A stretch of 25,872 nt of DNA from a phage. Below are positions 6,772-12,908 of the stretch, in pieces. Below the pieces are notes generated by a model. That model saw nothing but the letters and a program-made list of their open reading frames with translations. It ran no database searches and was not told the DNA's origin. The stretch's first letter is position 1. Each line of letters opens with the position of its first letter. The position numbers and the translations under genes are program-made. The DNA lies in NCBI GenBank assembly GCA_020318295.1, contig GCA_020318295.1_4859.2. The stretch is one strand, 5' to 3'.

Positions 6772-7104
6772 TCACTTATGTTTCTGTTTTTCTTCACGCA
6801 TCAACTTAGCGTTCAGGTCGACCATGTAACCCGGTTTTTCCATCACCTGCACTTCTTCCCAGTTGCTTCCCACCGCCATTTTGAGGGTTCCTTGACGTAC
6901 CGCGATTTCTTTTGCAGTGTCACGGCAGACCTCTAACGCTTCGTCCAAATCGTTAAAGGTTGTCTTCTGTGGTCCGTTAAAGGTTTTAGCGCATTCCAGG
7001 AATACACGTTCGTAAACATCCTGGTCGAGTAAGAGTGGTTTGTCCGCAGCGTGGACAACCATAGGCGCAACGAGTGCGCCTAACAGAACTAAAACTTTCT
7101 TCAT
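6772..7104 (-). CDS. Small secreted or periplasmic protein (110 aa) with N-terminal signal peptide
   Basis: MKKVLVLLGALVAPMVVHA-ADKP is a typical signal peptide with an AxA cleavage site; start overlaps the upstream stop as TAATG. Confidence 0.6.
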   Translation of the reverse strand: MKKVLVLLGALVAPMVVHAADKPLLLDQDVYERVFLECAKTFNGPQKTTFNDLDEALEVCRDTAKEIAVRQGTLKMAVGSNWEEVQVMEKPGYMVDLNAKLMREEKQKHK

Positions 7105-7586
7105 TATTTCACCATGTGTATAAGTTGATAACGTGGGGTTTCTTCTACCACAACATCAAAGGATGGAATACATGATATCTTTCCATTCAGGTCGAGATGT
7201 ATACGTGGTGAAATCATAATGGTTCCCGCACGCATCAGTTCAACCGCCTGGGCTTTGAGTGGGCCATGCGGAGTAAAATCTCCGCGAAGTTGAAAATGTC
7301 CTTCAACGATTCCGTAGCAAATATTTGACACGTACCCACAAACGCGATCAAGGTCGATGTCACGCACACGACGGTTGGCGTCTTCTAATTCCTTAAAAGA
7401 CCGGCACGGCTTAATAACCGGCGCATCGTATTCACAAAAGACGTGACCGCGGCGTAACGCCAGTGAGACAGCTTCATCCGGATGGTGCGGATCTTTGAAG
7501 TCCTCACAGGGTATTGAGAAAATTAAACCGCTGGCCGTCGCAACTGTTTGAGCAGGTATTTCCTTAACCTCAGTTTGTAGTTTCAT
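7104..7586 (-). CDS. Hypothetical protein (160 aa)
   Basis: ORF directly downstream of the HslU-like gene after an 80-nt gap; no recognisable motif and no HslV-like N-terminal Thr signature. Confidence 0.55.
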   Translation of the reverse strand: MKLQTEVKEIPAQTVATASGLIFSIPCEDFKDPHHPDEAVSLALRRGHVFCEYDAPVIKPCRSFKELEDANRRVRDIDLDRVCGYVSNICYGIVEGHFQLRGDFTPHGPLKAQAVELMRAGTIMISPRIHLDLNGKISCIPSFDVVVEETPRYQLIHMVK

Positions 7587-7666
7587 AAACTCGCTCGATG
7601 ATTAATGGGGTTAAAATCAAATCCATGTAACCTAGGGTCAATAACGCACATGCGGCGCTATTAGCA

Positions 7667-9427
7667 TTACGCGTTCTCTGTCCAAGCGTGACCACGCAGC
7701 GTTTCACCGCGTATGTCGTATTGCTTATATTTCGAAGAGTCGTAAGACGCAGGTAAGAAGATCTGATGAACAATATCCGCCAGTCGACGAGCGCCAAGGT
7801 TCTCTACAGCATTGGCTTCCATTGTTTTCTCAGCGATGAACGTATAGGTGTCCATGTCGTACTGCGTTTCCACCCCTTCGGTTTTCAACAACTTAATCAT
7901 GCCGTGGAACTCACTGTTATCCAACTTACAGATAGCAATCAGTGCCTCGGTATCCAGCGAAGACATTTTCGCTCTTAACGGAAAACGTCCCTGGAGTTCT
8001 GCCATGAGTTTAGAAACAGGCGCTTGAGCAAACGACCCAGCAGCGACAAAAAGCACATTGGTTGTGTCAACGCCATGATAAATACCCCCTTCAACCATTT
8101 TCAACAAGCTACGCTGCACACCACTACGGGATACACGTGCAGTGTGTTGCGTGTCAACCTCGATAAGTTTGTCAAACTCATCCAAGAACACCACCGCAAA
8201 GTTCTCAACGAAATCATGTCCATTACAGTTGGGTAGTTTCTTGAGGTCTTTGCGGCTGACTGTTTCTTTTTCTGGCACAACTGTTTCAGGTATCTCGTAA
8301 TGCCAAAGCCGTTCATCGGCGTATTTGGTAAATTCTGGAGAACCTTCGAACACGTCATCCCACCAACGACACCACTTCTCAGGATCTTCCAAACGAGACA
8401 ACATGCGAATAGTAAACGCTGCAGCGTCGATCGGGAGCCAATTAATGCCCGCCGGCTCGACGTCCTCGTCGTCGCCGTTAAACGTGTCGAACAAATCGTA
8501 GAAATCTGAGCCATCGGCACACGAGAGTGGCAGGTTATTTGACATCAGCGCTTGACCGGCATCAACGTATAAGTCAATCTGTTCGCCTAAAGCCATCAGC
8601 GACATAAACTCACCCATATACCCAATCGTGCCCGGTATATCACCATCCATTAACTTATCGACTTGACTTTCAAGTTCTTCACTATTCAACAGTTCAGAAA
8701 TTGACGAGACACCGAGCAGACTCCTTGCGATTTCCGAAATCTTATCTATCCATTCCTGCACAGTACGGCCACCGAGCGTAACAGAATAGATATCGAAGTC
8801 TTCGTAGGTTAAATTGTGTTGACGGCAATAGCCAACCATAAACGCGCGAAGACAATAGATGTCTTGGTATTCTTCGTACAACTCCTTCGGATCGAGTATA
8901 CCCTGACGCCGTAATAGTTCGGTGTGGTCACGTTTAGCCTGATACCGCAGCTGGCGCTCAGCTGCGCGCTCGTCTAGTTCGCGCTCAACTTCCTTACGGG
9001 ATTCACGCTCCCACTCTTCACGAGTAAGACGATTACCGTCTACTTCCGTCTCGACACGTCGTTTGGTACGCAGTTCGATATACCAGTCGGGCAATTCGAC
9101 AGAACGCGCTAAGTCGGCTAAGTCCTTGCCGATTGATGTAACTTCCCGGCCTACGTAGCCTGATTCTGTAAACGCGGTCATGTCGAGTTCCAGCACAGGT
9201 AAACCGAATTTAGTTTTCAGTACCCGCATCAACGCCGTTTTACCCGTGCCTGTTGGACCTTCTATTAAAAGGTTCTGTTTGTGGACCGACATACGGTCCA
9301 CTACGTTAAGTTTATTGGCACGGTATCGATTACGTAGCGCAATCGCCAGCATTTTCTTTGCCTGCGTTTGTCCATATACGTAACGATCGAATAGCGCCAC
9401 TATCTCAACCGGCGTGAGGTTTTCCAT
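7667..9427 (-). CDS. HslU-like AAA+ ATPase (ClpY-type unfoldase) with a greatly expanded insertion domain (586 aa)
   Basis: N-terminus TPVEIVALFDRYVYGQTQAKKMLAIALRNRYR and Walker A GPTGTGKT, TESGYVGREV, Walker B VVFLDEFDK, SRSGVQRSLLKMVEGG and sensor-2 ENLGARRL all follow the HslU pattern from memory. About 340 aa separate Walker A and B. Confidence 0.85.
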   Translation of the reverse strand: MENLTPVEIVALFDRYVYGQTQAKKMLAIALRNRYRANKLNVVDRMSVHKQNLLIEGPTGTGKTALMRVLKTKFGLPVLELDMTAFTESGYVGREVTSIGKDLADLARSVELPDWYIELRTKRRVETEVDGNRLTREEWERESRKEVERELDERAAERQLRYQAKRDHTELLRRQGILDPKELYEEYQDIYCLRAFMVGYCRQHNLTYEDFDIYSVTLGGRTVQEWIDKISEIARSLLGVSSISELLNSEELESQVDKLMDGDIPGTIGYMGEFMSLMALGEQIDLYVDAGQALMSNNLPLSCADGSDFYDLFDTFNGDDEDVEPAGINWLPIDAAAFTIRMLSRLEDPEKWCRWWDDVFEGSPEFTKYADERLWHYEIPETVVPEKETVSRKDLKKLPNCNGHDFVENFAVVFLDEFDKLIEVDTQHTARVSRSGVQRSLLKMVEGGIYHGVDTTNVLFVAAGSFAQAPVSKLMAELQGRFPLRAKMSSLDTEALIAICKLDNSEFHGMIKLLKTEGVETQYDMDTYTFIAEKTMEANAVENLGARRLADIVHQIFLPASYDSSKYKQYDIRGETLRGHAWTENA

Positions 9428-9636
9428 TAATTTTCCTCTTTCAATATCTCAGCAACTGCTTTACGGCACGCATTCACCGCGTCAGGATAAGTGGTGCTGT
9501 TCGGGTCTACGCGGTCAATGCACATTCTGAACGTACTGGTTGCGGTCTCGCGACGTTCTGCAGTGCGGGTACTGGTGCTGATGGCGATATAAATACAAAA
9601 CAACACAGCAGCCACGATCGGCCAACGTAGATTCAT
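9427..9636 (-). CDS. Small membrane protein (69 aa)
   Basis: N-terminal hydrophobic helix WPIVAAVLFCIYIAIS; coupled by ATGA at its start and TAATG at its stop to the flanking genes. Confidence 0.5.
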   Translation of the reverse strand: MNLRWPIVAAVLFCIYIAISTSTRTAERRETATSTFRMCIDRVDPNSTTYPDAVNACRKAVAEILKEEN

Positions 9637-12383: not shown

Positions 12384-12425
12384 AATAAAAAGGGACCTCC
12401 TCACCCGTGGGCAAGGAGGCGGGCC
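12384..12425 (-). terminator. Intrinsic terminator
   Basis: GC-rich stem cctcct/aggagg with extensions, followed by CCCTTTTTATTT on the minus strand; abuts the stop at 12426. Confidence 0.55.
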
Positions 12426-12908
12426 TTACAGTTGGTTTTCTTCACGGTCGTCTGTCAGGACGGCAGCACAGATAAAGCGTGCGAGTTTCAATTTCGCAGC
12501 TGCAGTCTCCTCTGCAGACGGATTCGGGTCAACCGGCGCAGCCAAATCGACATCTGCCAGCTCTTCCGCGTATTTCTCAGCAGCTTCATCGAAGCCTGCA
12601 CGGATACCTGCCAGAAGGTCTTGTACTTCATCACTTGGCACAGGACCATCGATAAGAATCTTCTGAGCATCTGATGGCTCTACATCGGCAAAGTTCATTT
12701 CGTTCAACATGCCAATGCGTTCTGCGTTAGAGGTGATGAGTTGTGCCAACAGTTTTTCAAAACGGTTGATATGTTCATCGTCCAACGGTTGACCGGTCAG
12801 TAGCTCGTAGTAGCGGGCCATAAGTGTGTTCGCGTCGGCCCCTTCCTCATGACGCACGCCTAAATCAAAATCGTGCTGAGGGAGCTGACCTAATTCGATC
12901 ATATCCAT
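12426..12908 (-). CDS. Acidic hypothetical protein (about 160 aa)
   Basis: The track ORF begins with TTG at 12920; ATG at 12908 (MDMIELG...) has GAGG 7 nt upstream. Confidence 0.55.
   Translation of the reverse strand: MDMIELGQLPQHDFDLGVRHEEGADANTLMARYYELLTGQPLDDEHINRFEKLLAQLITSNAERIGMLNEMNFADVEPSDAQKILIDGPVPSDEVQDLLAGIRAGFDEAAEKYAEELADVDLAAPVDPNPSAEETAAAKLKLARFICAAVLTDDREENQL

Follow-up and report, generated by a model that had tools for sequence, protein, structure and literature searches.

Why should a bacteriophage carry the motor of a bacterial protease, and what could that motor do there? The question is raised by one gene in the DNA analyzed here, a stretch of 25,872 nucleotides (contig GCA_020318295.1_4859.2; the window in what follows) belonging to a Seoulvirus, an SPN3US-like jumbo phage of Salmonella and a member of the nucleus-forming Chimalliviridae. 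This gene, called HslU-like below (Table 1), encodes an AAA+ ATPase of the HslU clade. HslU is a textbook protease cap; here we find what appears to be the same motor without its docking tail and with its substrate-recognition domain exchanged. The original prediction, made from the sequence alone, had proposed a retargeted unfoldase, and this idea is kept as the best reading of the evidence presented here.

An HslU motor with its predicted catalytic motifs intact

In a phmmer comparison with the sequences of the Protein Data Bank (PDB), the HslU-like protein matched HslU with E 1.6e-48, against 6e-27 for ClpX. The HslU match falls into two collinear blocks, residues 1-109 corresponding to residues 1-109 of E. 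coli HslU and residues 402-568 to HslU 242-414, and identity to cellular HslUs in this core is about 33-37%. The top NCBIfam model was hslU (TIGR00390), with a score of 209.1 bits that lies below the equivalog cut-off of this model, 362.45 bits. Among the PHROGs profiles the protein matched phrog_4339, of unknown function, with E 3e-149, the match joining residues 1-580 to positions 2-529 of the 552-position profile. A full-length AlphaFold2 (AF2) model, built from 62 sequences, had a mean predicted local distance difference test score (pLDDT) of 87.9, and its best 50 Foldseek matches in the PDB were all HslU/ClpY chains. Placement in the HslU clade, as originally predicted, is therefore borne out, since profile and fold matches both favor HslU over other AAA+ clades.

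Conservation of the motor was followed in 24 phage family members and, separately, over 62 sequences of phage and cellular origin aligned together. Residues G57, P58, T59, G60, G62, K63 and T64 of Walker A are invariant in the family, and all of them other than P58 are invariant across the 62 sequences. G90, Y91 and G93 of the pore-1 loop are invariant in the family, and the low pLDDT at residues 87-90 of the model fits a flexible loop at this place. Across the 62 sequences there is no variation in E477, L478, G480 and R481 of the ELQGR motif, which we take to be the arginine-finger position of HslU, or in G545, A546, R547 and R548 of sensor-2. The large and small AAA+ subdomains are thus collinear with those of bacterial HslU, and Walker A, Walker B, GYVG, ELQGR and GARRL are the same in both. 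Every string quoted in the original prediction was found in the protein (GPTGTGKT, VVFLDEFDK at residues 412-420, ENLGARRL at 542-549, a charged stretch, an acidic patch and the C-terminus ...RGHAWTENA). As far as sequence can tell, nothing is missing from the motifs with which the protein would bind and hydrolyze ATP and grip its substrates.

A helical domain in place of the I domain

Between the two blocks, which end at residue 109 and resume at residue 402, lies an insertion that is consequently 292 amino acids (aa) long. It sits exactly at the position of the I domain, the substrate-recognition element of HslU. The claim of a much larger, remodeled domain at this site has stood; the figure of about 340 aa given for it has not, being the distance from Walker A to Walker B. 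In the 62-sequence alignment the same interval measures 131-188 aa in cellular HslUs (31 sequences), against 274-293 aa in the present phage family and 237-245 aa and 391-411 aa in two other phage groups. When modeled alone, the inserted domain is predicted to be all-alpha (pLDDT 80.3; predicted template modeling score, pTM, 0.67); in the full-length model the pLDDT of this stretch is mostly 80-96, with dips to 67-77.

Neither Pfam nor PDB sequence profiles yielded relatives of the inserted domain beyond its own family, and no fold relatives were detectable in the PDB or, by Foldseek, in BFVD. In an exhaustive hmmsearch of 1.84e9 representative proteins the matches to the domain were confined to its own phage family, so that the profile search of this domain alone, which the original prediction had proposed, returned no relatives outside that family. 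Nor did hhalign detect any similarity when the domain was compared with the insertions of CR5-type, P0029-type and RAY proteins and with a cellular I domain. The sole element that it shares with the CR5-type and P0029-type proteins is a short motif, LP[D/K]W[Y/F], at the start of the insertion. By these searches the predicted domain is confined to a small group of nucleus-forming jumbo phages that infect enterobacteria. The I domain of HslU has not been enlarged in these proteins; a helical domain stands in its place, at the same site, and resembles it neither in sequence nor in fold.

Loss of the HslV-docking tail

HslU's C-terminal motif inserts into grooves of HslV (PMC7468587). Among the best 120 homologues of the HslU-like protein, all of the cellular HslUs (86/86) end in [Y/F]-I-L, nearly all of them 48 residues past GARRL, and none of the phage proteins does so. 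The phage family ends 32-43 residues past GARRL; its end consists of a conserved G-x-x-[LV]-R and then a short tail that varies. The HslV-docking tail is missing from every phage copy retrieved, which agrees with what had been predicted for the protein of the window. Other differences from bacterial hslU are that the gene is encoded by jumbo phages, lies outside any hslVU operon and is dispensable.

Distribution, loss and selection

The gene is 99.3% identical in nucleotide sequence to that of SPLA3, the closest genome, 97.1% to that of phage 1252 and 95.6% to that of MET_P1_082_240. Full-length homologues of the protein fall into three tiers, formed by SPAsTU, STsAS and pEa_SNUABM_29 (73% identity), by Machinavirus and related Erwinia and Salmonella phages (about 50%; Parshik, Machina, Huxley, ChrisDB, Caitlin, pSal-SNUABM-04 and several pEa_SNUABM phages) and by Kwan, Wellington and pEa_SNUABM_11 (about 42%). 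Matches limited to the two AAA+ halves were obtained in CR5, Derbicus, EarlPhillipIV and Phobos, in several metagenomic proteins and in the RAY/Ea35-70 group, which includes RAY gp116 as a distant tblastn match; phiKZ-type Pseudomonas phages were not among the tblastn matches. In a neighbor-joining (NJ) tree of conserved columns, built without an outgroup and possibly subject to long-branch effects, the phage copies separated from 31 cellular HslUs in 87/100 bootstraps with RAY included and in 100/100 without it, and the present phage family was supported in 91/100.

Names given to these proteins vary. GenBank records call members of the family HslU-like or heat shock protein, and a 99%-identical protein (P0001) is recorded as 'AAA family ATPase' from Salmonella enterica serovar Saintpaul. 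The description of pSal-SNUABM-04 lists 'HslV' at both ORF1 and ORF116 and states that 'no HslU' is encoded (PMC7823757), and the GenBank label of the homologue in this phage (MT710307.1, 106144-107871) is 'putative DnaA protein'. Judged from its coordinates ORF116 appears to be the HslU-like gene, and both labels appear to misannotate it. The original description of the function as undescribed was overstated in view of the GenBank labels and of the published localization of RAY gp116 (PMC10299810).

A 4.7-kb query around the gene showed that most Seoulvirus records do not have it. Two independent deletions were found among such genomes (Table 1). The first, found in SPN3US, the SPFM phages, SEGD1 and Proteus phage 7, joins position 9390 to 7647 at a microhomology (GCGCTATT / GCGTTATT) and leaves the first ~38 nucleotides (nt) of the gene. 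The second, found in Lh1B, EC001, JN03 and SPLA1a, lies at a 9-bp repeat (GTTGATGCG); of the gene it leaves a stub of 75 aa, and the two downstream open reading frames (ORFs) were lost with it. Because the two junctions are distinct, the HslU-like gene is ancestral in Seoulvirus and has been lost at least twice. It is accessory and dispensable, and with its deletion from SPN3US and most Seoulvirus records it is no part of the Chimalliviridae core. Where it is kept, the gene is under purifying selection, the ratio of nonsynonymous to synonymous substitution rates (dN/dS) being 0.12 overall and, in the comparison with MET_P1, 0.15 within the inserted domain and as low as 0.02 within the C-terminal AAA+ part.

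A divergent HslV-like peptidase elsewhere in the genome

We found no HslV-like ORF in the window, where the best tblastn E values with E. coli HslV and a phage HslV-like protein as queries were 0.11 and 0.75. Against 50,697 phage records E. coli HslV matched bacterial-contaminant or short records only, and no jumbo phage. This blank was at one point taken as proof that there is no HslV, a conclusion overturned by a divergent family of phage HslV-like proteins that the E. coli query misses. The family was reached through ORF1 of pSal-SNUABM-04 (position 1-474), which carries the GenBank note 'protease_HslV'. In SPLA3 (OR413581.1) positions 12413-12904 encode a 163-aa 'peptidase HslV family' protein with the N-terminus MTTIAFDGK, ~103 kb from the HslU-like gene and ~86 kb past the edge of the window. 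It matches phrog_1040 ('peptidase HslV family') with E 1.4e-37, and the equivalents of Thr1, Asp17 and Lys33 and the GSG motif are conserved. Its matches to archaeal proteasome beta and HslV models are weak and far below their cut-offs; the NCBIfam HslV equivalog gives 16 bits, with a cut-off of 158. In these jumbo phages the peptidase gene adjoins tRNA genes near the conventional start of the genome.

Since this protein is present, an SPLA3-type genome is not devoid of a peptidase of the HslV superfamily. The absence of an HslV partner, as originally claimed, holds for the window and fails for the genome: an HslV-like gene just outside the window had been named as evidence that would refute the prediction, and in spirit the SPLA3 gene is such evidence.

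The most serious alternative to a peptidase-independent function is a split phage protease, in which the ATPase would cap the phrog_1040 peptidase through an interface that does not involve the tail, and would feed it substrates chosen by the domain at the I-domain site. The peptidase is encoded by SPLA3 and every other Seoulvirus match and by 18 of the 22 distinct phages that have the present ATPase family; it starts with MTTI and keeps the catalytic residues and motif named above; and some GenBank records label the pair as HslV and HslU subunits. Nevertheless, the ATPase does not have the sole known HslV-docking element, the two genes are unlinked, and the peptidase falls far short of the HslV equivalog. 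It is also far commoner than its supposed partner. Its family occurs in 720 phage records, mostly of small siphoviruses and myoviruses without an HslU-like gene (~700 records), and it remains intact in all Seoulviruses, including those whose HslU-like gene has been deleted. Conversely, no peptidase was detected in Kwan, Wellington and pEa_SNUABM_11, whose ATPases belong to the present family, or in five CR5/Derbicus-type phages that have an HslU-like gene, so that eight or nine phages with such a gene gave no peptidase match.

Judged by presence and absence in these genomes, the HslU-like and HslV-like genes appear not to be co-inherited and to be distributed independently. The phrog_1040 protein is the only candidate HslV-like partner and a poor candidate for an obligate one, because it is widespread, is kept after loss of the HslU-like gene and is not found in some of its carriers. 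We regard the split protease as the main rival, and as unlikely.

Expression signals and neighboring genes

The start codon of the HslU-like gene overlaps the stop codon TAA of an upstream 69-aa ORF (TAATG), and because of this overlap the two are probably translationally coupled. The predicted ribosome-binding site is strong and the reading frame is intact. Scans for sigma-70 promoters and for terminators gave results at chance level, and PADLOC defence models matched the protein only as a generic P-loop protein. The cluster of P0001 holds 135 member sequences drawn from public sequencing runs, which suggests that this phage type is frequent in Salmonella sequencing data.

The 160-aa ORF immediately downstream, on the same strand, matches phrog_7478 ('head maturation protease') with E 1e-41 and Pfam PF20034 (Peptidase_S80) directly with E 0.044; precomputed PF20034 matches exist on most of the distant members of its family. 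In 24 sequences of this S80-like family no His or Ser is invariant, the invariant residues being E52, C83, P106, R128 and D144. Labels of its relatives vary among 'head maturation protease', 'prohead core protein protease' and 'virion structural protein'. Several jumbo phages have a cluster of small S80-like proteins around their HslU-like gene, with paralogues of ~150-160 aa at L004 3504-3989 and 5977-6423, L005 5939-6412 and L006 1927-2358. It is probable that these small proteins are paralogues of the prohead protease that have no catalytic function. For the 110-aa ORF a weak relative, CR5_126, has a lipoprotein-like start.

In Seoulvirus the whole block shows nested microhomology-mediated deletions. 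Proteus phage 7 has also lost the S80-like ORF, beyond the HslU-like deletion, and SEGD1 lacks the region of the 110-aa ORF and has an S80-like ORF that is merely 75% identical. In several records of the SPFM5-SPFM15 type (LR5359xx) the region aligns in 24-33 short pieces with ~98% identity, which suggests that these assemblies are indel-rich. The odd proteins of 107-139 aa (P0126-P0130) that partly match the S80-like ORF probably stem from such frameshifts.

Table 1. Positions of the HslU-like gene, its motifs, adjoining ORFs and the segments deleted in related phages, in window coordinates
Feature	Position	Strand	Description and basis
HslU-like ORF	7667..9427	-	Complete from ATG to stop, 586 aa; HslU-clade AAA+ ATPase
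Shine-Dalgarno-like AGAGGA	9434..9439	-	6 nt 5' of the ATG of the HslU-like ORF; read from the sequence
N-terminal part of AAA+ large subdomain (residues 1-109)	9101..9427	-	Collinear with E. coli HslU 1-109 (phmmer)
Walker A / P-loop GPTGTGKT (residues 57-64)	9236..9259	-	Family and 62-sequence alignments
Pore-1 loop GYVG (residues 90-93)	9149..9160	-	Substrate-gripping aromatic loop; motif same as in cellular HslU
Inserted domain (residues 110-401)	8225..9100	-	292 aa, predicted all alpha-helical; topological site of the HslU I domain
Highly charged single helix (residues 136-174)	8906..9022	-	39 residues; the coiled-coil-like stretch of the original prediction; DSSP on both models (H33-71 in the domain model, H136-174 in the full model)
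Walker B VVFLDEFDK (residues 412-420; D416, E417)	8168..8194	-	Invariant in the family and across the 62 sequences
ELQGR motif (residues 477-481)	7985..7999	-	Block alignment
Sensor-2 GARRL (residues 545-549)	7781..7795	-	62-sequence alignment
C-terminal end (residues 569-586 and stop), ...YDIRGETLRGHAWTENA	7667..7723	-	Without [Y/F]-I-L; motif scan of 120 homologues, family alignment
160-aa ORF	7104..7586	-	Small paralogue of Peptidase_S80 (phiKZ-type prohead protease); phrog_7478, weak PF20034
110-aa ORF	6772-7104	-	N-terminal signal-peptide-like MKKVLVLLGALVAPMVVHAADKP; phrog_10627, function unknown
Deletion 1	7647..9390		Absent from SPN3US, SPFM phages, SEGD1 and Proteus phage 7; blastn break points, junctions, SPN3US annotation
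Deletion 2	6806..9225		Absent from Lh1B, EC001, JN03 and SPLA1a; junction of 9225 with 6806

Discussion

We propose that the HslU-like protein is an HslU-derived unfoldase or remodeler that works independently of a peptidase, takes its specificity from a lineage-specific helical crown, and is accessory and possibly nuclear; we give this reading a probability of about 0.55. That the protein is a stand-alone remodeler is probable because the tail that couples HslU to HslV is gone. In a subset of chimallivirus jumbo phages of Enterobacterales it would form a hexameric, ATP-driven ring, with the six inserted domains making a crown at the entrance of the pore. The crown would pick phage-specific substrates, which would be threaded through the pore with no hand-over to a docked HslV-type peptidase, and it is this missing hand-over that would make the protein a chaperone, a disassembly or a remodeling machine instead of a protease cap. 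The benefit to the phage would be conditional and not essential.

A parallel for such a change of function may be seen in ClpB/Hsp104 as compared with ClpA. ClpB has lost the peptidase-docking element, has gained an inserted helical domain, and remodels proteins independently of a peptidase. The likeness is a functional analogy: a docking element has likewise been lost and a helical insertion gained by the phage protein, which belongs to another AAA+ clade, would form a single ring and has a non-homologous inserted domain.

The one relative for which a location in the infected cell has been described is gp116 of the Erwinia phage RAY, an accessory HslU-family protein that was found together with the phage DNA within the phage nucleus (Prichard et al. 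2023, PMC10299810). By analogy with gp116, the SPLA3-type protein may have its place of action within that compartment, where it would be out of reach of host HslV. Both are HslU-like ATPases of chimalliviruses, with an enlarged insertion, no [Y/F]-I-L tail and a place outside the core genome, and in the NJ tree gp116 falls on the side of the phage copies, separate from the cellular HslUs. They differ in that identity is about 26-32% in the AAA+ halves, the insertions are unrelated by hhalign, the pore loop of gp116 is GYYG, and nuclear localization was observed for gp116 itself and not for the SPLA3-type protein.

Several points weigh against our proposal. The low identity and the unrelated insertion make the transfer of localization from gp116 weak. 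The oligomeric state, ATPase activity, substrates and localization of the HslU-like protein are all inferred, and the AF2 model of the inserted domain alone was built from 16 sequences and reached a pTM of only 0.67. The recurrent loss of the gene could mean that it is of marginal use. Finally, the co-occurrence of ATPase and peptidase in 18 of 22 phages leaves room for a non-canonical pairing of the two.

A more specific role, as a peptidase-free pulling or remodeling motor in the phage nucleus or at its inner face, can be imagined. The crown would dock to the chimallin shell, to import factors or to DNA-bound proteins, and the motor would thread selected proteins into the nucleus or strip them from phage DNA. 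A possible role of an unfoldase in protein transit into the phage nucleus has been raised by Kokontis et al. 2024 (bioRxiv 10.1101/2024.03.27.586873), and a nuclear motor of this kind, if true, would be a lineage-specific answer to it; we consider it a long shot.

A still smaller chance attaches to interference with host proteostasis, in which the phage protein would compete with or poison host HslU, by mixed hexamers or by sequestering substrates, or would re-use host HslV. The protein is HslU-derived, with about one third of its core residues identical to those of cellular HslUs, the host has HslUV, and a remodeled substrate-recognition domain would be consistent with the idea, which the original prediction had put forward as a possible decoy or inhibitor of host HslUV. 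Against this, a protein without the tail is not expected to activate host HslV in the canonical way, the core is so diverged from enterobacterial HslU that mixed rings are doubtful, and the only localized relative sits within the phage nucleus, separated from the HslUV of the cytoplasm.

That the gene is a relic in decay, now without function, is very improbable: at least two losses within one genus, and its absence from most Seoulvirus isolates, would fit, but the low dN/dS, above all in the C-terminal AAA+ part, the strong ribosome-binding site and intact frame, and catalytic motifs that are invariant across phage genera sharing only about 42-50% identity speak against decay. Least probable of all is a pairing with the adjacent S80-like protein as a non-HslV protease partner, which has in its favor the phrog_7478 and PF20034 matches, the position of the gene, paralogues that lie within 2 kb of the HslU-like genes of SPAsTU, Parshik and Kwan, and co-deletion of both genes in Lh1B-type phages, but which is largely refuted by distribution, since SPN3US, the SPFM phages and SEGD1 keep the S80-like gene after precise loss of the HslU-like one and CR5 and RAY have none beside theirs; together with the finding that catalytic residues are not conserved, no His or Ser being invariant, and with the annotation of relatives as virion structural proteins, this led us to discard the 160-aa ORF as a substitute protease partner.

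The importance of a peptidase-independent remodeler is tempered by the facts that the gene is dispensable, that it is already annotated as HslU-like and that a distant homologue is in the literature. New here are an inserted domain without relatives, the universal loss of the tail in phage copies, the independent distribution of HslU-like and HslV-like genes, and two microhomology deletions. Because natural pairs exist, with the gene in SPLA3, 1252 and MET_P1 and without it in SPN3US and Lh1B, its phenotype is directly testable. Furthermore, the mutually unrelated insertions found at one site across jumbo-phage lineages amount to a natural experiment in the retargeting of an AAA+ unfoldase, and the HslU-like protein is a candidate for protein remodeling inside the phage nucleus.

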